Shown here: in pieces, positions 21 through 62,897 of the stretch
How positions within the stretch are numbered: position 1 is the stretch's first letter
Layout: the number at the start of each line of letters is the position of its first letter
Source: a phage
Sequence record: OZ346212.1
DNA length: 64,000 nucleotides
Reading direction: 5' to 3' (one strand)
Notes under the pieces: model-generated
Databases searched by the model: none
Told to the model about the DNA's origin: nothing
Seen by the model: only the letters and a program-made list of their open reading frames with translations
Made by a program: the position numbers and the translations under genes

Positions 21-2444
21 ATGAGCATGTGGTCGTTCGACTTTGAGTCATCCGGTTTGCTGGAAGACCCAGATCTTTATTATCACTGCGGCCTGTTTAA
101 AGAGCTGAATAAGAACCGTTTTATGCTGTTCCTTCCTCTAAATGACCGCACACACTACTCCGAGGAGGATATAGAAAAGGCTAAGAACTTCATTCTGGCA
201 AAGAAAACTCTTTATAAAGATTTTGAAGTTCGCATAGCAGATTTTTCAGAGTTGGAAGGTTGGCTTACAGGAAATTCTGACTGGTCACCAACAGCTTTGA
301 ACTGCCATAACTGCTACAGTTATGACTTTATGCTGATGGAAAGATTATCTGGTATTCATTTTGATATGTTCCGTGATCCTAAGTGTATGGGGACTATCAA
401 CGATCACCAGGTTAACCTGTTTGATACGTTGGCGATGAGCCGAATCTTGTGGCCTGATCGCCCTTTACCAAAAGGTTGTCCGGACTCTGTATTCAACCCG
501 GTTACTAAGAAAATGCAGCCTGTTGGTCCTCACGGCCTTATGGCATGGGGCTACGCCCTTGGTAACCAGAAAGTTCAAATTGATGACTGGCGCGATCTTC
601 CGTTATGGAAGTATGTGGATCGTGTATTTGAGGACGTTATCATCCAGGAGCTGCTCTGGAAAGAGCTGGTAGCGGAATCAAAAGGTGTATTCTACGGCAA
701 ATCTGACATGCAGAACTTTATGTACGATCCTGCCAAAGAGAAGCCGAAAGGGTTCAAGAAGATCACCTGGAAGAACGCATTACGTCGAGGCATGTTGCAG
801 CACTTCCTGATGGAGCTGCAGGCCCGTCAGGGTGTATACTTCGACATAGATGGGGCTATTGCTTTACGTGACCGCTGCGATGCGTGGATGAAAGAGATCG
901 CTGATCGTGTTGAACCACAACTGCCTTTAAAAGAGCTGTCAATGTCTCAGCGGCCCAAGTTCCCTGAAAAGCCGTTTAACCAAGATGGGACAATCTCTAA
1001 TAATGGTTGGAAATGGTTAAAAGATAAGCTTGGCTATCCTGTGGACATGAGTGCTTTAGAGTTCAAAGCCCCACCTAAGCGAGCATTTACCTCTACAGGA
1101 GATGTCAGTAAGATGGGGATAAAATGGTGTGAAGAGATGGGCTGCAAAGACCACGATAAGATGGCTGATTTCTTGAGAGGTTATATTAAGGGCACCTCCA
1201 CACCACAACCTTTACCTAAAGAGCTGATGGATCAGGCAATAAGCGATCTGCAACAGAAGCGAATGCCTGACTGCAAGATACCTATGAAAATCAGCAATCA
1301 GGACGACATTAAGCGATACCTGATCAGTGCTGGTTGGCTTCCGACAATGTGGAGAACTAAGGATGTAACTAAGGACAGCAAGAAGAAAGCTCTACCTGAT
1401 GCAGATGTTGATGCACGAGTATATGCATACATGGACGAGCTTTTAGAGTCAGAGTATTGTGACCTAATTATCAACTTCTGGAACAAAACTGATGCTAAGT
1501 TTCAGACAACAGTGCACAAGTTCCGAAGCTTTCCTAACTCCGAAAGGATTAAAAAGGAAGTGTTCGGGAAAATACGCAGAAAAGCCAGGGCACTTATTAC
1601 TTCTCCGCAACTGAAAGATACGTTTGGACACCTATGTCCGAATCTTGAAAAATTGAACGGAGAGATGGCTAAAGATATCGTCTTGTGGTTATCATTGCGA
1701 AACCGCAGATCGGTCCTTGATCCAATCAAGGAGGATAAGGTTGATACTGGTCTTCTTAATCACCCACGTTTGAAGATTGACCATAAGCTTCCTGCTAAAA
1801 GCTCTGGATTAACAAACACTTCCCGACAGAAACACAGTATTTGTGCAAACATGCCTAAACCATCTCCTAAAGTGGTTATGGGTAAAGAGATGCGTAGCTT
1901 GTGGGGTGTTCCTCCTGGATACTTTGAGATCGGTATTGACGGGTCCAACTTAGAGCAGCTTATCGGGGCTTGGGGTGCCTTTGAGTTCGACAACGGCTTG
2001 TACTATGATGTTGTAAGTAACGGGGACGCACACCAAAACAATGCTGAGGCATATACAAAAGTAGCAGGCAGAGAGGTGTCTCGTAACGACGGTAAACCTA
2101 TCACGTATGGGGTTATGTACGGGGCACAAAAAGATAAAGTTGCAGATATGCTGGATATCTCCCCAGAGTTGGGGCAAAGGGTGATCGATGCACTTTGGGA
2201 TGCCAACCCAGGTCTTAAGGGGCGCAAAGAGGATCTGGAGAAATTCTGGGAAGCAACAGGTAAGAAGTTTATCTACTCTTTTGATGGTCATGCTATCTGG
2301 ACCCGATCTAAACACTCTTTACTTAATGCATACCAACAAAATGGCGGCGCATCGTTGTGTGACTTAGTTGGGATACTCATGCACCATCAAATGGTGAAGC
2401 GTGGGTGGTACGATGAAGGTGTTCGTCGTATTATCTATTACCAT
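21..2444 (+). CDS. DNA polymerase, family A (T7 gp5-like), exon 1: 3'-5' exonuclease domain plus polymerase motifs A and B
   Basis: AAGGAG SD then ATG 21; N-terminus SFDFESSGLL...YHCGLF resembles T7 DNAP Exo I; motif A-like IDGSNLEQL and motif B-like RNDGKPITYGVMYG; frame closes one codon after ...RRIIYYH, exactly where motif C (HDE) is expected. Confidence 0.8.
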
Positions 2445-3286
2445 AAATAACATTGTGGCTTCGTGCAGTGATGCACGTCGAAAACCTCTTTAATTGACGG
2501 GAAGGCTAAGTTGACTTTTACACCTAAACATGGTAAAAGCTCAATATGCTAATCCGCAGCGAAGACTAAAGGGGTGTAGTTAAAATGGCTAGATCAGTTG
2601 AGTATCACGGATATACCGTGTTTGATGATGGAACAATACCTTTATCGAAACGTGATCATACAACAATGTTTTGTTTTGATAATGGTCGAGGTTACCTTTG
2701 CGTAACCATGTTCATCGAGGGGAAGCAGTGCACAAAAGGTGTCCACCACTTGGTTGCTGAATGCTTTGTATCAAACCCTGATCCTGAAAGGCTCACATGG
2801 GTGAACCATAAGGACGGAAACAAATACAACAATGCATACTGGAACCTTGAATGGACCACCCCTGGTGGAAATATCAAACACGCTTATGATAATGACCTCA
2901 GAGTAAGGCCAGTCGGTGAGTATAATGCCAACGCTGTACTGACCGAGGATGAGGTAACGGAGATTTGCGAACTGTTACAAAGTGGTTTACGACAATGCGA
3001 GATTAGGGATCTTGGGTATCCTTATGAGACGGTCAGAGCCATAAAGCAAAGAAGACAGTGGAAACATATCTCTAAAAACTACACCTGGTAGTAACGTTCA
3101 GAGACTATCGAAAGCATAGCGCCAACATAAATTGGTGCGAAGAAGCGAGTAGAGTAGACCAGCAAGTGCGGTCGAAATGGGAGGTGCCTTGGTAACAAGG
3201 TAGTGAGATAGTCCGATCCATACAGGAAACTGTATGGCTGTGCACGTAATGGTGCGGGGTAGCTTAACGACCTACCTGAACTATTG
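2445..3286 (+). mobile_element. putative group I self-splicing intron in the DNA polymerase gene (boundaries approximate)
   Basis: Last exon-1 nt is U, last insert nt is G; joining 2444|3287 restores ...YYH|DEYQLQV (motif C); insert carries a free-standing HNH ORF flanked by 140 nt and 195 nt of non-coding sequence. Confidence 0.55.
2585..3091 (+). CDS. HNH homing endonuclease (intron-encoded)
   Basis: HNH signature HHLVAECF...VNHKDGNKYNNAYWNLEW; complete ORF lying inside the interrupted polymerase gene. Confidence 0.8.
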   Translation: MARSVEYHGYTVFDDGTIPLSKRDHTTMFCFDNGRGYLCVTMFIEGKQCTKGVHHLVAECFVSNPDPERLTWVNHKDGNKYNNAYWNLEWTTPGGNIKHAYDNDLRVRPVGEYNANAVLTEDEVTEICELLQSGLRQCEIRDLGYPYETVRAIKQRRQWKHISKNYTW

Positions 3287-10483: not shown

Positions 10484-10816
10484 ATGGTAACATTGGAAAG
10501 ACGTAAAGCTATTGCCGCCACACTGGCAGACATCTTTTGGGATTGTAATTTAAAATCTACCCGAAATTGTGGTGCATCTGTAGATGTATTATTCCCACGG
10601 CCTACTATTGTTGCAATGGGCAACCTGCTCGATGTGGTATATGGAGCATGGGACAAGGAAGGTGGATTCTATATCTGGCAACCTGACTACGGGACTTGGA
10701 AAGAGGTTAGTGGTTCTTCGGACTTCACTCCTGCAGTGGCTAAAATGGATGGCTGGAAAATCTATGTCGGTAACGACATGGAACTGAAAGGCGAAATTGT
10801 TTACTGGTTACCTTAA
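10484..10816 (+). CDS. hypothetical protein (110 aa)
   Basis: Track ORF, co-directional. Confidence 0.55.
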   Translation: MVTLERRKAIAATLADIFWDCNLKSTRNCGASVDVLFPRPTIVAMGNLLDVVYGAWDKEGGFYIWQPDYGTWKEVSGSSDFTPAVAKMDGWKIYVGNDMELKGEIVYWLP

Positions 10817-10837
10817 GAAAGTCCAGGAGATAAAGTT

Positions 10838-11083
10838 ATGAACAAAGGGTGGACATTTGTAGACGGCGTTAAAAACATGCCTCTAGGAAAGTATATTGTA
10901 GCCATGGCAGATGAGAATGGCAAGGTTGATTTCGGAGTTTGCGAGGTTGTTCTTGCAGGATCTGGTGACTATGCTCACAAAACTGGGATAATTAACGGTC
11001 ATTTCTACTTTGATTACAACCCTGTTGTGGCGTATATGGCTATGCCAGAGTTCGAGCTCCCAAAGGAAGGTGCAGATGTTTAA
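10838..11083 (+). CDS. hypothetical protein (81 aa)
   Basis: SD AGGAGA upstream. Confidence 0.55.
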   Translation: MNKGWTFVDGVKNMPLGKYIVAMADENGKVDFGVCEVVLAGSGDYAHKTGIINGHFYFDYNPVVAYMAMPEFELPKEGADV

Positions 11084-11273
11084 GCTTAAATCTGCATGGA
11101 ACATCGCTGTGGGGGACGAGATCCGTATCCCAGGTGGAAAGACCATTATGAAAATATCTCGTATCGAGTACGAAGGTGATCGTGTATTTCATATCTTTGC
11201 AGAAGATGGTCGAGAGATTTATATACAGGTAGGATCTCACATCTATATTCGTAAGAAAGGGGAGGACAAATGA
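11076..11273 (+). CDS. hypothetical protein
   Basis: Internal ATG 11076 after AAGGAAGG; track ORF starts 11010. Confidence 0.5.
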   Translation: MFKLKSAWNIAVGDEIRIPGGKTIMKISRIEYEGDRVFHIFAEDGREIYIQVGSHIYIRKKGEDK

Positions 11274-11599
11274 CAGAGATCATCATTTCAACTGCAGGGT
11301 ATGTATTCCTGACAATCATTGCACTGGCTATTTTGGTGACAGTGTATGGGTTTGTTATCCTTCCTATCCTTGAGACATTTAGTTTGTGTCGGTGTTGGAG
11401 AAAAGCTTACGGTCCACAACCATGGAAGGACTGGCCCCACCTGGTGCGCTTAGCGTTCTCTTATGCTTACGATCACTCCAGTAGTGCATGCATAACCGGA
11501 TACCACGCCCACAACTGGAGCTGGGAAGGGTTGAGGAAATGGAATGTTACAAAGACCATACCTCTGCGCATGTACAAACCTAAAAACAAAGACAACTGA
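11270..11599 (+). CDS. hypothetical membrane protein
   Basis: N-terminal hydrophobic segment (IISTAGYVFLTIIALAILVTVYGFVILPIL); ATGA overlap. Confidence 0.5.
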   Translation: MTEIIISTAGYVFLTIIALAILVTVYGFVILPILETFSLCRCWRKAYGPQPWKDWPHLVRLAFSYAYDHSSSACITGYHAHNWSWEGLRKWNVTKTIPLRMYKPKNKDN

Positions 11600-12780
11600 T
11601 ACTTGAAAATTCCTGGCATATCAAGTATAAGGGGGATTTCTAAAATGGATTTCCTCCTTTTGATATTTCACCGGGCTGGATATTTTAAAATTCTTAGAAA
11701 ATCAGAAAATGGATCGAAAACTAAAATGGATTTTTCAGAGTAGGCGCGACAAGCTGAATAACTCATCCTATCGTTTGCACCATATTCCAGGCCACCATTA
11801 TAGATTTCCCACACATGCTAACCTCTCCCTACTAGAACTTCCTCCACTTACCCTTGACCTTCTATGGTAACAATCTAACCGCTATCTTGAAGTTGCGGTG
11901 CAGCTTTCCAGGTACTCGATCTACTTTTCATTTCAGGGCTTGGATTTTCTGAAAATTTTTCTCGATAAATTTCTCAGTACTCGATCTGTTTTTCGTTTTC
12001 TGAATCGGATTTTCTGGAAATCGTTCCGGCTCTCAACCTGAAATTTTTGGGGACGAAATCGATTTTTCGTTTTCAGAAATGGATTTTTAAAATTTCTATA
12101 TGGGAATATTTTAGTGGATACTGTTTTATAGGAAATTGTTACGGAGGGTAATTAGCATGCTAATTAAATTTATTAAATGCGAGGAGTTCTCATTTAGAAT
12201 TTTGAATGATAATCATTCTCGTTTGCAGAATAACGGGCAGGCCCGGTGATTGTCTCCCGGCCCCTGTTGCCCCGGCTTGTTATTATAGTATCACACAGGA
12301 CAAAGAAAGCAAGGACTTTTTGCATAAATTTTTAAATGATAATGATAACCGTTCTCATTTTATGCAGCGCCCATCCCCGGTGGTTGTCTCCCCCGTCACC
12401 GGTGCCTGCCGTCCTTTCGATATGTATATTGTGCCACCTGGCGGGGCCGCTGTCAACACTTTTCAAAAAATTTTTCTAACCTGGTGCGCTAACCGTTGCA
12501 ACCTGGCGGGGCCAGCCTGGCAGGACCTAACTGACCAGGTAGGGGAGAATGAAGGCTTGTAAACCTGGTGGGCCTATGCTACAGGATAGGTAACAATTGA
12601 AGAGGAGGTACAAAAATGATATGATCCCCCTGGAAAATGTAGCTATTAATGACTCTGAGGCTATCGCCCTGGTTGAAAAGGCTATGGCGGGAGCGTTGGA
12701 ACATAAAGAAGAGTACGAAAATGGTGGTTAACCTGGCGGGGGCGGCAGGTGGATTCTATCATAAAAATAATTTAAAATAG
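11600..12780. other. non-coding repeat-rich island
   Basis: About 1.2 kb without a convincing ORF; degenerate GGATTTTCTGRAAA / TACTCGATCT repeats, two tandem units with Fur-box-like GATAATGATAA sites, repeated CCTGGCGGGGC motif. Confidence 0.6.
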
Positions 12781-12861
12781 TAGTTGACAACAAGGTTAAT
12801 CATGGTATTATTACCCTACAAGGTGAACAACACCGCACTAACCAGTAAAGAGGATAAATTT

Positions 12862-13059
12862 ATGAACGCATACGGGATCAAAGTACGTCGCAACACTCGC
12901 CAGGTGGTCACCAATCAAGTGATTTGCCGGGTGGATGTAACCATCAACAACGGGCAAGGCCTTTATAAATTTCGTCGCGGTCATAGCTATACCCTGCAAC
13001 AGCTTAATCGTTGCGCCCTGACAAAAGGTCAGATCAACCACTGGTTTAATAAAAAATAA
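12862..13059 (+). CDS. hypothetical protein (65 aa)
   Basis: ATG 12862 after AAGAGGA; track ORF start 12784 is the promoter -35 TTG. Confidence 0.5.
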   Translation: MNAYGIKVRRNTRQVVTNQVICRVDVTINNGQGLYKFRRGHSYTLQQLNRCALTKGQINHWFNKK

Positions 13060-13062
13060 GTA

Positions 13063-13091
13063 TTGACATACAGTCAGACACCAAATACACT
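13063..13091 (+). promoter_or_regulatory. sigma70-type promoter (TTGACA-17-TACACT)
   Basis: -35/-10 hexamers 61 nt upstream of ATG 13124. Confidence 0.5.
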
Positions 13092-13123
13092 AAAAGCACA
13101 AAAGACACTAAGAGGATAAAATC

Positions 13124-13309
13124 ATGAAAACCACTACCTTTAATTTTGATAATGCAGACTTTTCTTTTTCTGATGTCAAGAACTGCCGCCGTGATCGTGG
13201 ATTTTACAAGGCTTATAATCTGGTGGGCCTGGACGATGACAATAATTTGCACGAAGTAGCTGAGATCCAGCTTGACAGATTGGACGGGAAAGTACTAAAA
13301 ACTTATTGA
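13124..13309 (+). CDS. hypothetical protein (61 aa)
   Basis: SD AAGAGGA then ATG. Confidence 0.55.
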   Translation: MKTTTFNFDNADFSFSDVKNCRRDRGFYKAYNLVGLDDDNNLHEVAEIQLDRLDGKVLKTY

Positions 13310-13310
13310 G

Positions 13311-13357
13311 TTTATTTTTAGATGGCCTTGACACCAGGGCCATCAATAAAGTAAACT
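13311..13357 (+). repeat. intergenic palindromic element, copy 1 (GATGGCC-TTGACACCA-GGCCATC)
   Basis: TTATTTTTAGATGGCCTTGACACCAGGGCCATCAATAAAGTAAAC; near-identical copies at 13933 and 17650, degenerate copy at 14266. Confidence 0.7.
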
Positions 13358-13509
13358 AACCACAGTTGAGCGGAAAAGGAGGCTTAAAGATGAGCACTAC
13401 ACGCCAGCACACAAAGGTAACCATCATCGTTTGCATCATTGGGTACATCCTGGCGCAAATGTTGATGGGTAGCGCCAACGGTGTCGCAAAATTTTTCTTA
13501 AACTTTTAA

Positions 13510-16963: not shown

Positions 16964-17306
16964 TGCCACGTTAATTAACCCCTTTAGTAAAGATTTGAAG
17001 CCAGCCGCCTGGCGGGATGGATTCAATAACGAACGCTTTATTTTCAGGCCTGATCTTGAGGAATTTTATAACAATGGATCGAACAACAGCGGAGATAATT
17101 TTTCTTGTGGTGTGTGTCGTGATAGGACTCCTGGGGGCCATTGTAGATCGCGTCACTACTACCAGAAGGAAAGGGGGAGACGATGACAACCAAGGATAAG
17201 CCCCGCACCGATAAGGTGCGCCGTGTTATGGTATGGCTTGAGATCATCGCCCTTGAAATATTGTTAGGCGTAGGGATGTATTTTATCTCTGTAAGTAACT
17301 GATAAC

Positions 17307-17338
17307 GGCCCCCGATCCCTGGGGGGCCTAACTTTTTT
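17307..17338 (+). terminator. rho-independent terminator
   Basis: GGCCCCC-gatccct-GGGGGGCC followed by TAACTTTTTTC. Confidence 0.65.
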
Positions 17339-17445
17339 CAAAAAATTTTTCTTCCGGGGTGTTGCAATCCGGTCCTGAATATGGATAATAACAATCAACG
17401 GGGAAACATCCCCACCAACACAAAAACCAGAAAGGAGAAACAAAA

Positions 17446-17646
17446 ATGAGCAACAATATCCGCGTTATTAACTTCAAAAAAGAAGAAAAAATTGCCGTGC
17501 TGATTGACGGTCAAGAAATCTTCAAGGGCGACTATGAAGATCATCAAACGGCGATTAGTATCACTCGCGTGATTGGTTACCATAATTTTTACCCCCAAGG
17601 CGCTGAGGCGGCGGTTAAACGAATCAAAGAGATTGTAGGCCTGTAA
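17446..17646 (+). CDS. hypothetical protein (66 aa)
   Basis: TTGCAA/GATAAT promoter, leader hairpin, SD AAAGGAGA. Confidence 0.55.
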   Translation: MSNNIRVINFKKEEKIAVLIDGQEIFKGDYEDHQTAISITRVIGYHNFYPQGAEAAVKRIKEIVGL

Positions 17647-17649
17647 AAT

Positions 17650-17695
17650 TTATTTTTAGATGGCCTTGACTCTAGGGCCATCAATAAAGTAAATT
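17650..17695 (+). repeat. intergenic palindromic element, copy 3 (TTGACT variant)
   Basis: TTATTTTTAGATGGCCTTGACTCTAGGGCCATCAATAAAGTAAAT. Confidence 0.7.
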
Positions 17696-17739
17696 TAAAC
17701 CCTGTTAAAATACCACGCAGTTAACAAGGAGTAATGATC

Positions 17740-18039
17740 ATGTTTATCCAGGCTAATAATCTTTATTTCTTTGATGGTCAGATCGTAGATGGTGTGGAAG
17801 TGGAGATCACTGGGTGCCCTGGTGGTCAGGCTATGACTTTTCGGAATAATGCCTTTGATGATTCTCATATCGTTATGAGAATGGAAGTTACAAAGCTGGA
17901 CGACAAGAAAACGCTCATTGACTATTCCGTGAAAGATCATCCAGACTACCACATGATCTATGGTGATTTGTGCATTGTTGACCGTGACAAGGTGGGCGGC
18001 ATTGTGATCGCTATTGTGAACGATGTTTTCTCTGTATAG
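17740..18039 (+). CDS. hypothetical protein
   Basis: Second ATG (17740) has better spacing from SD AAGGAG than track start 17734. Confidence 0.55.
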   Translation: MFIQANNLYFFDGQIVDGVEVEITGCPGGQAMTFRNNAFDDSHIVMRMEVTKLDDKKTLIDYSVKDHPDYHMIYGDLCIVDRDKVGGIVIAIVNDVFSV

Positions 18040-19444: not shown

Positions 19445-20436
19445 AAGCACATAGCCGCCAGATCTCAGAATTTACGTACGCTCACCAGTCTATAGCCTGC
19501 TAAGTATTTATTCCAACCATAGAATAACGGAATAGTCAATACCTGCATAAAATAATTATTCGTGTAAACTGCATAACATAAATCGGCTAGGATGTCAACA
19601 TTTTTCGTAAACAGCTCGAAATTATAACGGTGAGTTATAATAAACAGAGAAATCTTTAGTCGTCTAATGTTTACTGTACATTACTATACTGACTGGAATC
19701 ATTAGATGACTAAGAGAAAGATAAGAAATCATTAACAATGCAATTGTTTTATTCGTAACAATAAGGCAACTATGCAAACGGATGGCATGGCGCGACGGAG
19801 TCGCGACATAATATAAAAGCAGTAACCATCACCCCCGTGATAGTTTGTCTGCAAACTATTAATCAGATCATAGTTGCCTTGTATTTAGTTAATCATGACA
19901 TAACAAGCAAGGCAACTATAGATCTGCTAATAGTTGCCCTGCTTTTATATTATGTCATAGATTATTAGCCTGTTAATTGTTAGTCAGTCAAATCAACAAC
20001 GTTATCATTTCAGTCTTTATTGTTGTTGATCGTTATTGTTATCATGCAAACGAATGGCATGGCTTATCATTTTTGAGTAAACAATCTATACGTGAACAGT
20101 GAGGCAAGTTAGCAGCCGATAGATTAGATATTAACCTGCAGACTTCTGACCGTCTAGACGTCTAAACGCCCACACAACAAGGATTATACATACAATACTG
20201 AATGTAAACAGGGCCGCAAAAATGCTACCATACCACAGATTGTAAATTTTTCATGCAGCACTTGACAAAGAGGAGAACTTAATTTTATCAGGATAGGCAA
20301 GAATGTCAAGGCATGACTGCTCACTAAACAAGCAAACAGTCATGTGTGGGAGGTAAGTGATTGTGGTGGTAGGAAATTTAGTTGAAAGATGTGTTATAGG
20401 TGCTTCCAGCACTTTAGCCGGGCAGCTAATTGTGTG
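19445..20436. other. convergent-transcription junction, AT-rich with hairpins and direct repeats
   Basis: No ORF; palindromes ATAGTTGCCTTG...CAAGGCAACTAT, CGCGAC-gga-GTCGCG, ATAGTTTG-tctg-CAAACTAT; direct repeat ATGCAAACG(G/A)ATGGCATGGC twice. Confidence 0.5.
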
Positions 20437-20652
20437 TCAGTCCAGCGGTTCATCCTCTACTTCACTGAAATCAATGTTCATGGTCTCTTCCCAACCATCG
20501 ATCTCAGCACAAGAGTGGAGTTCTTTAGGGTTTACTCCTAAAGCCTCAGCAACAGAGTCTATATTTAACACCTCTGGCAGGTATGATTCATCAAATTCAA
20601 GGTAAATCAGGCCACGAGTGTTGTCAGCTCCACCAAATATTTCTATCTTCAT
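20437..20652 (-). CDS. hypothetical acidic protein (71 aa)
   Basis: Track ORF; last gene of the minus-strand block. Confidence 0.5.
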   Translation of the reverse strand: MKIEIFGGADNTRGLIYLEFDESYLPEVLNIDSVAEALGVNPKELHSCAEIDGWEETMNIDFSEVEDEPLD

Positions 20653-27795: not shown

Positions 27796-28088
27796 TCTCC
27801 CTCTACCGTGGTCGGATTGTCAGTAAGAAATTGAGCATTGGCTGGAGGCACGCCTGACATTTTCCACACAACCATAAGTTTATAACCAGGCACTCTATTA
27901 AGTGCAGATCGAGTAGAGTTTGTGCACGTATACTTTCGCTTTCCAAACCCGTTCTCCATCATAATCCAGTACCCAGTATCTTTGTCACCAGGTATCGGTA
28001 GACCACCTTCATCAACCCACTGAATTGACCACGGCACGATGGCTACAGCTTTATATTTAAACTTTTTAAACCACTCAAAAAGTTTCAT
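27792..28088 (-). CDS. hypothetical protein (98 aa)
   Basis: Track ORF; ATGA overlap. Confidence 0.5.
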   Translation of the reverse strand: MKLFEWFKKFKYKAVAIVPWSIQWVDEGGLPIPGDKDTGYWIMMENGFGKRKYTCTNSTRSALNRVPGYKLMVVWKMSGVPPANAQFLTDNPTTVEGD

Positions 28089-62084: not shown

Positions 62085-62159
62085 GCCCTGTTAGCTTAGT
62101 GGATAAAGCAGCGGCCTTCTAAGCCGTTGACACTGGTTCGAGTCCAGTACGGGGTGCCA
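62085..62159 (+). tRNA. tRNA-Arg (anticodon UCU)
   Basis: Hand-folded cloverleaf: acceptor GCCCTGT/ACGGGGT, anticodon loop CTTCTAA, T-loop TTCGAGT, encoded CCA. Confidence 0.8.
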
Positions 62160-62163
62160 AATT

Positions 62164-62250
62164 GGGGAGTTATCCCGTAGAGGTAGCGGTGTAGACTGTA
62201 AATCTATTGTCATTGCGACTCGGGTGGTTCGACTCCACCACTCCCCACCA
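62164..62250 (+). tRNA. tRNA-Tyr (anticodon GUA), long variable arm
   Basis: Acceptor GGGGAGT/ACTCCCC, anticodon loop CTGTAAA, T-loop TTCGACT, CCA; overall like E. coli tRNA-Tyr. Confidence 0.8.
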
Positions 62251-62364
62251 AATTTATATTTTTAGATGCATAAATAATACAGATAATGGCATTGATATTT
62301 ATCGTCGTTTATACTAGTCACTAACTGCTCGAAAATCAGTGTCATTATCAGTATTATTTATAAA

Positions 62365-62455
62365 GGAGGGTAGGGAGCAATGGTGCTCAATCGGTCTTGA
62401 AAACCGTCCCGTTGAGGATGACTCGATGATGGTTCGATTCCATTACTCTCCGCCA
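62365..62455 (+). tRNA. tRNA-Ser (anticodon UGA), long variable arm
   Basis: Acceptor GGAGGGT/ACTCTCC, anticodon loop CTTGAAA, 20-nt variable arm, T-loop TTCGATT, CCA. Confidence 0.75.
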
Positions 62456-62553
62456 CATTGTTGACCTTGTAATTAAGCGAAAGTCGGAAGCAGAACCGGA
62501 TTATCAAATGTTACAGTCGTCATCGCCGACTAGCAACATGGTCAACATACTGA

Positions 62554-62650
62554 GCTAGGTAAGCCCTTTGGCAAGGGCGAGGATTTTTAATCCTGAAAAT
62601 AGACGAGGTAGTCGTTGAATACATAGGTGGTTCGATTCCATCACCTAGCA
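62554..62650 (+). tRNA. atypical 97-nt tRNA-like gene (possibly Lys-UUU with about 29-nt variable region) or pseudo-tRNA
   Basis: Perfect acceptor GCTAGGT/ACCTAGC, D-arm GCCC...GGGC, hairpin with loop TTTTTAA, extra hairpin ACGA-ggtag-TCGT, T-arm GGTGG-TTCGATT-CCATC; no encoded CCA. Confidence 0.35.
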
Positions 62651-62657
62651 CCTTTTT

Positions 62658-62733
62658 GCTGATGTAGCACAATCGGTAGTGCAATTGATTTGTAATCAAT
62701 AGGTTGTAGGTTCAAGTCCTGCCATCAGCACCA
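62658..62733 (+). tRNA. tRNA-Thr (anticodon UGU)
   Basis: Acceptor GCTGATG/CATCAGC, anticodon stem ATTGA/TCAAT with loop TTTGTAA, T-loop TTCAAGT, CCA. Confidence 0.85.
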
Positions 62734-62734
62734 A

Positions 62735-62809
62735 GGCCCTGTAGCTGGAAGGTTCAAGCAAGCGACTCATAATCGCCAGACGGTGGTTCAATTCCACCCA
62801 GGGCCACCA
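62735..62809 (+). tRNA. tRNA-Met or Ile2 (anticodon CAU), elongator type
   Basis: Acceptor GGCCCTG/CAGGGCC fully paired (not initiator-like), anticodon loop CTCATAA, T-loop TTCAATT, CCA. Confidence 0.75.
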
Positions 62810-62820
62810 AATAGTAAATA

Positions 62821-62897
62821 CTCCGCGTAGCTCAGCTTGGTAGAGCGCCTGATTTGGGATCAGGAGGTCGAGTGTTCGAATCACTCCGTGGAGACCA
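62821..62897 (+). tRNA. tRNA-Pro (anticodon UGG)
   Basis: Acceptor CTCCGCG/CGTGGAG, D-arm GCTC...GAGC, anticodon stem CCTGA/TCAGG with loop TTTGGGA, T-loop TTCGAAT, CCA. Confidence 0.85.

Follow-up and report, generated by a model that had tools for sequence, protein, structure and literature searches.

A conserved non-coding repeat region of rV5-like phages as a possible origin of DNA replication

Introduction

What function is served by a gene-free gap of about 1 kb that lies within a long run of phage genes and is filled in part by direct repeats? The gap in question is located in a 64,000-nucleotide stretch of phage DNA from sequence record OZ346212.1 (the window, to which all positions refer unless another genome is named). 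Genes on the + strand extend from position 1 to ~19.4 kb of the window and are followed by a block of - strand genes. The gap spans 11600-12616, between a + strand open reading frame (ORF) that ends at 11599 and the next genes at ~12616. An earlier reading of the same DNA (the original prediction) had drawn attention to a field of repeats at 11640-12180 and had offered a protein-binding array, a packaging or injection-control site and an origin-associated repeat field as candidate functions. The gap that it described is real, but at ~500 bp its extent was put too small by about half. The right half of the gap (12176-12460) is part of the same element as the repeat field, and the block of palindromes and promoters found there, which the original prediction overlooked, is the most widely conserved part of it. 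Reading the sequence as a whole, we propose that the repeat field forms the left half of a ~1-kb essential non-coding control region that quite possibly serves as the phage origin of DNA replication.

The 2 kb around the repeat field are 94-99% identical to many Escherichia Vequintavirus (rV5-like) genomes, the best match being phage EdH4 (98.9%). The rV5-like phages (Vequintavirinae) have a broad host range and are widely proposed for therapy and biocontrol. An element of ~600 bp with defined parts, the right half of which is also present in Phapecoctavirus, provides a concrete origin candidate. The locus had previously been seen only as the hypothetical genes bas54_0100-0102 of phage Bas54 and possibly as a box labelled 'non-coding', without ORFs, on the map of rV5 (Kropinski et al., 2013; PMC3606486); this box may be the gap. 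In the literature searched, no account was found of how the repeats are arranged, of their conservation in several genera, of the non-coding character of the locus or of a functional model for it.

Results and discussion

Architecture of the repeat field

The original prediction described motifs of 10-15 nt in irregular tandem. Repeats are indeed present, and all three motifs that it quoted were found at the positions it gave, but analysis with a repeat finder shows that these motifs are the head, the middle and the body or tail of one composite unit rather than separate short repeats. The field contains three such units of 54-77 bp, arranged head to tail with start-to-start spacings of 65 and 74 bp and a mutual identity of 70-74%. 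The sequence GGATTTTCTGRAAA occurs exactly at 11942 and 12007, with no other copy in the 64 kb, and TACTCGATCT occurs exactly at 11913 and 11978, with one unrelated exact copy at 27906. The sequence CGATTTTTCGTTTTC is found at 12060 and, with two mismatches, at 11986, while AAATGGATTT has exactly three copies in the window, all of which are within the repeat field. The best self-alignment of 11640-12180 scores 35, compared with 20.9 +/- 2.4 (maximum of 32) in 200 dinucleotide shuffles.

No other 200 bp of the window hold as many A/T tracts as the array of units (12-13 tracts; the background is 1.3 per 100 bp), and the same is true of the corresponding array in the whole Bas54 genome. The field had been called AT-rich; overall, the enrichment is modest (63.6% for 11640-12180 compared with 57.3% for the window), but the 100-bp stretch that adjoins the array on its right is among the least stable DNA of the window (Table 1), and its equivalent ranks fourth least stable in the whole Bas54 genome. 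Inside the low-stability stretch of the window lies TAATTAGCATGCTAATTA (12149-12166), which no other perfect palindrome in the 64 kb equals or exceeds at a length threshold of 16 bp. At the left edge of the field is a further cluster of repeats in which A/T tracts reach 8.3 per 100 bp (1.3 in the window).

Table 1. Features of the gene-free gap and equivalents of the Bas54 annotations, with within-genus identities from eight aligned Vequintavirus copies and insertion data from the Bas54 transposon library.
Feature	Window coordinates	Strand	Within-genus identity	Description
Left A/T-tract repeat cluster	11637-11745	.	0.89-0.94	AAAATGGAT(T/C), GATATTT x2; repeat finder
Spacer	11746-11904	.	~0.75-0.80	Repeat-free, drifting; no A/T tracts
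Composite unit 1	11905-11969	+		Head GTACTCGATC, then TTTTC, GGATTTTCT, tail GAAAATTTTTC; in bas54_0100 equivalent
Composite unit 2	11970-12046	+	0.92-0.99	Best cross-genus profile match, E = 1.7e-5
Composite unit 3	12047-12100	+		Diverged head GGGGACGAAATCGAT; inside bas54_0101 equivalent
Units, conservation segment	11950-12100		0.92-0.99	
AT-rich low-stability stretch	12078-12177	.		Candidate DNA-unwinding element; 76% AT, third least stable 100 bp of 64 kb
Two 19-bp palindromic operator-like sites	12176-12194 (weak), 12205-12223 (strong)	.		Fur-box 7-1-7 type (AATGAtAAtcATTcTCatt), 29 bp centre to centre; matrix scores 18.6 bits (12176) and 25.1 bits (12205)
Rightward promoter-like site	12202-12231	+		TTGAAT-18-CAGAAT; strong palindrome in spacer; read from sequence, block conserved in 17 sequences
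GC-rich module A	12232-12284	.	0.97-0.98	ACGGGCAGGcCCGGTGATTGTCTCC...; 71-88% identity to distant genera
Leftward sigma-70 promoter P_A	12312 to 12285	-		TTGCTT-16-TGaTACTAT; predicted, read from sequence
Third palindromic operator-like site	12341-12359	.		Matrix score 25.4 bits; belongs to duplicated module (12328-12392 repeats 12192-12258)
GC-rich module B	12360-12427	.	0.99	Most duplex-stable part of region
Leftward sigma-70 promoter P_B	12428-12456	-		TTGACA-17-TGgCACAAT; predicted, promoter scan, 10/12 matches with TG
Palindrome/module block, conservation segment	12150-12450		0.94-0.99	
Segment right of P_B	12500-12600		~0.76	
Flanking protein genes			0.67-0.97	
bas54_0100	11895-12041			Units 1-2; 1/3 TA sites hit; not classified; mean reads 5 (~200 in neighbours)
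bas54_0101	12047-12151			Unit 3 and AT-rich stretch; 0/11 TA sites hit; 'Essential'; mean reads 0
bas54_0102	12206-12479			Palindromes, modules, promoters; 5/15 TA sites hit; 'Strong fitness defect'; mean reads 13

Conservation within and across genera

A sensitive search with the gap sequence matched 248 phage records. Among the matches listed, only a core of 60-150 bp (window ~12157-12313) aligns outside Vequintavirus, at 71-88% identity; the relatives that bear this core are Seunavirus, Mydovirus, Certrevirus and Henunavirus, together with Phapecoctavirus from the separate subfamily Stephanstirmvirinae. At the syntenic position, every locus fetched from the other genera shows a large gap without genes, and the same order of parts can be read in PVP-SE1, GAP31/EC152, 4MG, KpS8, Hena1, POP15, CR3, F1M1E and ABPH49. 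The upstream gene is followed by GATATTTG boxes (two to four) and short GAAATC-type repeats, of which the left A/T-tract cluster of the window is, as judged by eye, the counterpart; then come a variable spacer, the three units, the AT-rich stretch, one to four 19-bp palindromes and a conserved GC-rich block.

The unit type that is common to the genera can be written as GG(T/A)(T/A)CTCGATC...TTTTC...(A)AACGTATT(T/C)TCT...GAAAAAATTTTTC, with exactly three in tandem. The repeat finder returned exactly three units in five further phages, representing four other genera and an unclassified lineage, with spacings of 75/67 bp in PVP-SE1, 74/67 bp in KpS8, 76/69 bp in Hena1, 78/63 bp in CR3 and 68/65 bp in ABPH49. 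Phapecoctavirus has a different repeat, of 72 nt, at the same place. A profile built from the PVP-SE1, KpS8 and Hena1 units gives exactly three matches in the complete 136-kb genome of the Vequintavirus Bas54, and these are its three units (E values of 1.7e-5, 0.012 and 0.032, with nothing else below 1).

The eight Vequintavirus copies that were aligned are 79-90% identical overall. In this alignment, neither the units nor the palindrome block is less conserved than the neighbouring protein genes (Table 1), which indicates that the repeats are under purifying selection. Conservation in relatives was one of the points on which the original prediction had let its functional reading stand or fall, and the architecture is kept in every Vequintavirinae genus examined. 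That the field is a functional cis-acting array and not junk is strongly supported by this cross-genus architecture, by the purifying selection and by the intolerance to insertions in Bas54 described below.

Insertion intolerance and coding potential

A saturated mariner-transposon library has been reported for Bas54 (phage MaxBurger), a Vequintavirus, in the HIDEN-SEQ preprint (10.1101/2025.11.20.689424). The gap is located at 81.2-82.2 kb of the Bas54 genome, where it is tiled by three annotated small 'hypothetical proteins' that we mapped onto the window by alignment (Table 1). The insertion-free bas54_0101 equivalent includes the AT-rich stretch up to 12151. The surrounding genes bas54_0090-0099 and bas54_0104-0109 are all non-essential except for bas54_0095 ('reduced fitness') (10.1101/2025.11.20.689424, Extended Data Table 8), and in the flanking genes mostly 73-100% of the TA sites were hit, with mean reads of 150-800. 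The selection marker of the transposon carries its own promoter, BBa_J23110 (10.1101/2025.11.20.689424), and the insertion-free segment is therefore not explicable by missing local transcription.

In the preprint (10.1101/2025.11.20.689424) the locus is regarded as protein-coding, and the one insertion-free gap singled out is the other, of ~2 kb, at the strand switch. A corresponding alternative is that the region encodes small essential proteins (bas54_0100, 0101, 0102 and their equivalents) and that the repeats are incidental. The window does contain open frames of 34-118 aa, which several records annotate, and it is bas54_0101 that the preprint authors rate as 'Essential'. The coding tests argue against this. 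Relatives were aligned and the variable columns were counted by codon position (1/2/3): the real flanking genes have an excess at the third position (13/7/42, 11/4/21, 20/12/43 and 3/4/11), whereas the variation is flat in bas54_0100 (13/14/13), in bas54_0102 (8/7/8) and in the ORF at 11709-11870 (24/23/17). The frame of bas54_0100 is shifted in YP-6 and that of bas54_0102 in EdH4, a phage with 99% identity to the window; the third ORF has stops in relatives. For bas54_0101 the counts are likewise flat (5/5/9); it has a TTG start, no visible ribosome-binding site and a premature stop in four of ten phages. Further, the spacings of the units are not consistently multiples of three, and the other genera keep the DNA architecture and not the ORFs.

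Because the ORFs of the gap fail the coding tests, the essential entity must be sought in non-coding DNA or RNA. We consider the locus to be almost certainly an essential cis-acting non-coding element in which bas54_0100-0102 are not genes; small essential proteins are a highly improbable explanation. The absence of ORFs claimed in the original prediction was nearly right, in that small ORFs of 34-53 aa are present, some records listing them as genes, yet they do not behave as coding sequence. The three loci that count as 'essential or unclassified hypothetical genes' in the earliest map of essentiality for such a phage are thus almost certainly cis-acting DNA, which calls for a correction of annotation in many of the more than 100 related records and marks a region that phage engineers should avoid for payload insertion.

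Palindromes, promoters and GC-rich modules

A matrix derived from the palindrome copies of the other genera finds only three sites above chance in the window, all of which are in the gap (Table 1; null maximum of 15.3 bits). The palindrome consensus is AATGA(G/T)AA(T/G)NATTCTCATT. Where two or three copies are present, their spacing is exactly 29 bp in Phapecoctavirus anhysbys, Certrevirus, Seunavirus and Mydovirus; phiWec179 has four palindromes with irregular spacings of 40, 28 and 23 bp.

Two leftward promoters, P_A and P_B, are predicted to the right of the paired palindromes, and both point at the palindromes, the AT-rich stretch and the units. Their hexamers and the 16-17-bp spacing are kept across an alignment of 17 sequences (six named genera and the unclassified ABPH49), in which the spacer sequences are unrelated. 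When applied to other genera, the promoter scan returned equivalents of both P_B and P_A in PVP-SE1 and CR3 and of P_B in anhysbys. The rightward promoter-like site was not reported by the scan, and is therefore to be taken as weak or inferred; judged from its sequence, it may drive a + strand antisense RNA.

These features bring into consideration an essential non-coding RNA or regulatory locus, in which an untranslated RNA product or an antisense interplay would be what the phage needs. Leftward RNAs would arise from P_B and P_A, and possibly a rightward RNA of ~200 nt from the palindrome-controlled promoter, while the units would merely be downstream or 3' sequence or sites that tune transcription. 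Such a locus is consistent with the conserved promoters, with the extreme conservation of the primary sequence of modules A and B between subfamilies and with the strong fitness defect caused by insertions in the module block. In genera other than Vequintavirus, the block of module B also forms an 11-bp hairpin on the + strand that is followed by a U-rich tail; the three G-U pairs of the hairpin are valid only on this strand, and there is one compensatory change in Hena1. However, the hairpin is not conserved in Vequintavirus, the covariation in module B is minimal and module A gave no consensus RNA fold on either strand. Five insertions are tolerated in the promoter/module block, and the part that is strictly free of insertions (0/11) has features of a DNA type (direct repeats and A/T tracts) with no RNA-structure signal. 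A search of Rfam 15 gave no match with E < 4 in window 10500-13500 and none with E <= 1 in four distant loci. Taking these observations together, we regard an essential RNA or regulatory locus as rather unlikely.

The pseudo-ToxI anti-abortive-infection RNA repeats of phiTE, a phage of the same subfamily, were considered as a possible parallel and rejected, as they belong to another locus and not to the syntenic gap; the phiTE escape locus (106,714-106,772) lies beside tRNAs, ~1.6 kb upstream of the terminase gene.

The palindromes share the 15-bp 7-1-7 inverted-repeat geometry of the Fur box (GATAATGATAATCATTATC; 7-1-7 unit TGATAATnATTATCA) and, as in Fur-repressed promoters, one of them lies in a promoter-like sequence, between its two hexamers. 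Within the 64 kb, the Escherichia coli Fur consensus is matched best at 12338-12356 (16/19, three mismatches) and 12202-12220 (15/19, four mismatches), from a scan with a null expectation of 2.7 sites at <=5 mismatches in the window. There are differences, however. The Fur box has T at position 4 of the half-site (TGATAAT), whereas the cross-genus phage consensus TGAGAAT-N-ATTCTCA has G; in most genera one half of the promoter-proximal palindrome is still TGATAAT, the exceptions being PVP-SE1, Hena1 and CR3. Unlike the Fur box, the phage sites form an array that is phased at 29 bp. A literature search on a link between Fur and such phage sites found nothing relevant. It is doubtful that the palindromes are true sites of the host iron regulator Fur or of a phage protein that mimics its specificity. 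If they were, an essential replication/control element of a strictly lytic phage, together with the transcription that enters it, would be gated by the iron status of the host. The Fur-like array, which in Bas54 is found only at the two essential non-coding loci, hints at a tie of host physiology to the control of phage replication.

A possible origin of replication

Of the functions that had been put forward for the repeat field, a role at an origin is the one best fitted by the anatomy, and the parts can be assigned tentatively as follows. The three composite units, rich in phased A/T tracts, would be iteron-like sites for a phage-encoded initiator or helicase loader, and the adjoining 100-bp AT-rich stretch of low stability would be the unwinding element. 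The promoters P_B and P_A would be used by the host RNA polymerase (sigma-70) to fire leftward across this stretch, and so activate or prime replication by a replisome of the T7 type with a family-A polymerase and a gp4-like primase-helicase. The 29-bp-phased palindromes between the promoters and the unwinding element would be the sites of a dimeric regulator, which could be a phage protein or a host Fur-like one and would gate both the leftward transcription and the possible antisense promoter.

Several observations are consistent with this model. Direct repeats (units, 11905-12100) lie beside a low-stability AT-rich stretch (12078-12177). Genes for a family-A DNA polymerase and a primase-helicase are annotated upstream in the same early transcription unit, and the phage is without an RNA polymerase of its own; host-polymerase promoters would thus take the role of phi1.1A/B at the T7 primary origin. 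The units differ between the subfamilies and the palindrome/promoter block is shared, as would be expected if the units co-evolve with a phage initiator while the block handles host machinery. The pattern of insertions also fits the origin model, as the core, made up of unit 3 and the AT-rich stretch, tolerates no insertion at all, and the need for the promoter/operator block is strong without being absolute. An argument from R-loops is not relied on here, because the G-richness of the leftward transcripts would be no more than mild (+ strand GC skew of -0.09 to -0.16).

At the T7 primary origin an AT-rich region comes after the tandem promoters phi1.1A/1.1B, and T4 oriF and oriG consist of a promoter with a downstream unwinding element. 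The likeness to both lies in promoters that fire into an adjacent, easily melted AT-rich segment, here as two predicted promoters in tandem, and the likeness to T7 extends to the T7-like replisome annotated in the phage. In contrast to T7 and T4, the promoters here are of the host sigma-70 type, three long direct repeats lie on the far side of the AT-rich segment, which is separated from the promoters by a palindromic operator array. With the iteron origins (lambda ori, P1 oriR, RK2, pSC101 and R6K) the region shares direct repeats, an adjoining AT-rich stretch as a candidate unwinding element and bent DNA, and its repeats are lineage-specific, as expected of co-evolution with an initiator; it differs from them in having three composites of 54-78 bp in place of 17-22-bp iterons and in the absence of an adjacent initiator gene, DnaA boxes and IHF sites. 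A promoter-driven transcript aimed at the presumed start, with a possible complementary antisense RNA from an opposing regulated promoter, would recall ColE1 RNA II and RNA I, although module A has no conserved RNA secondary structure and the region has no sequence similarity to plasmids.

Other observations weigh against an origin. The insertion data are from the relative Bas54, the gap of which is ~93% identical, and not from the phage of OZ346212.1; they point to a non-coding element required in cis, which is a matter of essentiality and not of replication, and the intolerance to insertions is equally compatible with any essential cis element or RNA. No marker-frequency, two-dimensional gel or plasmid-origin data for the locus were found in the literature searched. 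The GC skew of the + strand has no origin-type shift at the gap (~0.135 to the left, ~0.065 to the right), and in rV5 the skew analysis failed to locate an origin and its break-points are not at the gap (Kropinski et al., 2013; PMC3606486). The units, at 54-78 bp, are far longer than classical iterons of 17-22 bp. No initiator candidate was found among the neighbouring proteins, which are all PHROGs of unknown function save for a macro-domain/phosphatase protein. The gap in the window contains no DnaA boxes (<=1 mismatch), no IHF consensus and no enrichment of GATC, and the few DnaA-like matches in other genera either lack a conserved position or coincide in part with the -10 element of P_A. 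Finally, the second essential non-coding gap at the strand switch, which in Bas54 has the same palindromes, could itself be the origin.

Packaging, genome ends and DNA entry

A packaging site of the pac or cos type, at which three bent units would bind the terminase small subunit and packaging would start, would also be essential in cis, and the three A-tract-rich repeated units are unique in the genome. In these respects, namely three repeated elements, bent DNA, uniqueness in the genome and a requirement in cis, the region resembles lambda cosB (three R sites and an IHF bend) and the SPP1 pac site (bent pacL/pacR). Reports on the genome ends of Vequintavirus disagree: two describe headful or circularly permuted genomes, which implies a pac site somewhere, and another view is that of a direct terminal repeat (DTR), as assigned by CheckV. 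One record, that of EC152, opens inside unit 1.

However, the gap in Bas54 is ~80 kb from the terminase genes (large subunit at 683-3113; gap at 81.2-82.2 kb), and palindromes and inward-firing promoters are not known to have a role in pac sites. A comparison is offered by Klebsiella phage KPP-1, the gap of which (124,907-125,507) is 99.5% identical to that of KpS8. A 514-bp direct terminal repeat has been assigned to 116,316-116,829 of KPP-1 from coverage and PhageTerm; it is in the strand-switch gap, ~8 kb from the homologue of the gap studied here. Because KPP-1 has the same gap architecture and yet has its terminal repeat ~8 kb away, the packaging reading is disfavoured. Among the 60 of 248 matches listed, EC152 alone starts at the gap, and its junction lacks 8 nt, as in an assembly break. 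With the KPP-1 repeat at the convergent strand switch and the starts of the listed records, save that of EC152, elsewhere than at the gap, the terminus or packaging function suggested in the original prediction finds no support, and we consider it unlikely.

The EC152 record (Enterobacter phage; PP681140.1; position 1 of fetched locus L004 and the end of L011) lacks, relative to GAP31, the 8 nt TACTCGAT at the junction of its end and start. This is likely to be an assembly break at the repeats.

Control of DNA entry is a further alternative. A T5-like injection-stop or pause site, or a nucleoid or architectural site, at ~7-8 kb inward of what is presumed to be the right end of the genome, would set apart a block of early genes that enters before the remainder. 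The T5 injection-stop region is rich in repeats, palindromes and bent DNA, and the gap is dense in the same features. Its distance from the strand-switch gap, which in KPP-1 is the site of the terminal repeat, is ~7 kb in the window and ~11 kb in Bas54, and just to the right of it a promoter-like site, present in other genera as well, points to the presumed end. Against this, nearly all of the genes that separate the gap from the presumed end can be dispensed with, the reports on the physical termini of Vequintavirus conflict and two-step DNA transfer is not known in this group of phages. We consider a function in DNA entry to be very unlikely, and an origin of replication is the reading that we retain for the control region.

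The strand-switch gap

A second gene-free gap of ~1 kb is located at the convergent strand switch (window 19446-20440). It contains ATGCAAACGRATGGCATGGC near 19772 and 20043, together with inverted copies of AAGGCAACTAT / ATAGTTGCCTT at 19763-19945, and each related record matches it in three separate places. This gap is the counterpart of a ~2.5-kb insertion-free gap in Bas54 (92,786-95,297) and of the region of the 514-bp terminal repeat in KPP-1. The Bas54 gap has Fur-like palindromes at 94128, 94146 and 94262, which are absent from the counterpart in the window; those at 94146 and 94262 are the only other strong copies of the palindrome in Bas54. In KPP-1 (fetched locus L012, 1900-2050, minus strand), palindromes of the same type (GGAATGATTCTCATT and AATAATTATTCTCATTC) are present in or next to the reported terminal repeat. 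The copies in the KPP-1 terminal-repeat region and in the Bas54 strand-switch gap indicate that the operator links the two large non-coding loci.

Additional features of the region and its relatives

An 11-bp inverted repeat (CTGATACTTGA / TCAAGTATAAG) with a 14-nt loop is found at window 11596-11631, beginning at the stop codon of the upstream gene; it is not followed by a T-run and is therefore not a canonical terminator. Between P_B and the next gene (window 12478-12573) are short GC-rich direct repeats, AACCTGGTGCGC / AACCTGGTGGGC and two copies of TGC(C/A)ACCTGGCGGGGCC, in a segment that drifts among relatives (~0.76 identity).

Just to the right of module B, and still in the gap, Seunavirus, Mydovirus and Phapecoctavirus have a small minus-strand ORF (60-88 aa) with its own divergent promoter region (fetched loci L005, 2294-2476, PVP-SE1 gp201; L006, 2317-2508; L007, 2327-2518; L003, 3314-3580). 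This ORF is absent from Vequintavirus, Hena1 and Certrevirus.

No similarity of the region to plasmid origins or to E. coli DNA was found, the sole match in PLSDB being the Vequintavirus-like genome CP057073.1. This 'plasmid' of 137,565 bp, which matches at 17143-17742 with 95% identity, has the size of a Vequintavirus genome and looks like a phage genome that was deposited as an E. coli plasmid (contamination or a carrier state). A group of ~17 records, MG0656xx ('Campylobacter phage' D1, D#, C9, A141 and others), is 94-97% identical to coliphage Vequintavirus in this region, and their Campylobacter jejuni host labels look doubtful.

Elsewhere in the window, a cluster of seven tRNA genes (62085-62897) includes at 62554-62652 a 99-nt tRNA-like gene reported by ARAGORN with a four-base anticodon (atcc). 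Bas54 is annotated with tRNA-Lys at the corresponding place, and the gene in the window could be an intron-containing or otherwise unusual tRNA, or a mis-call.

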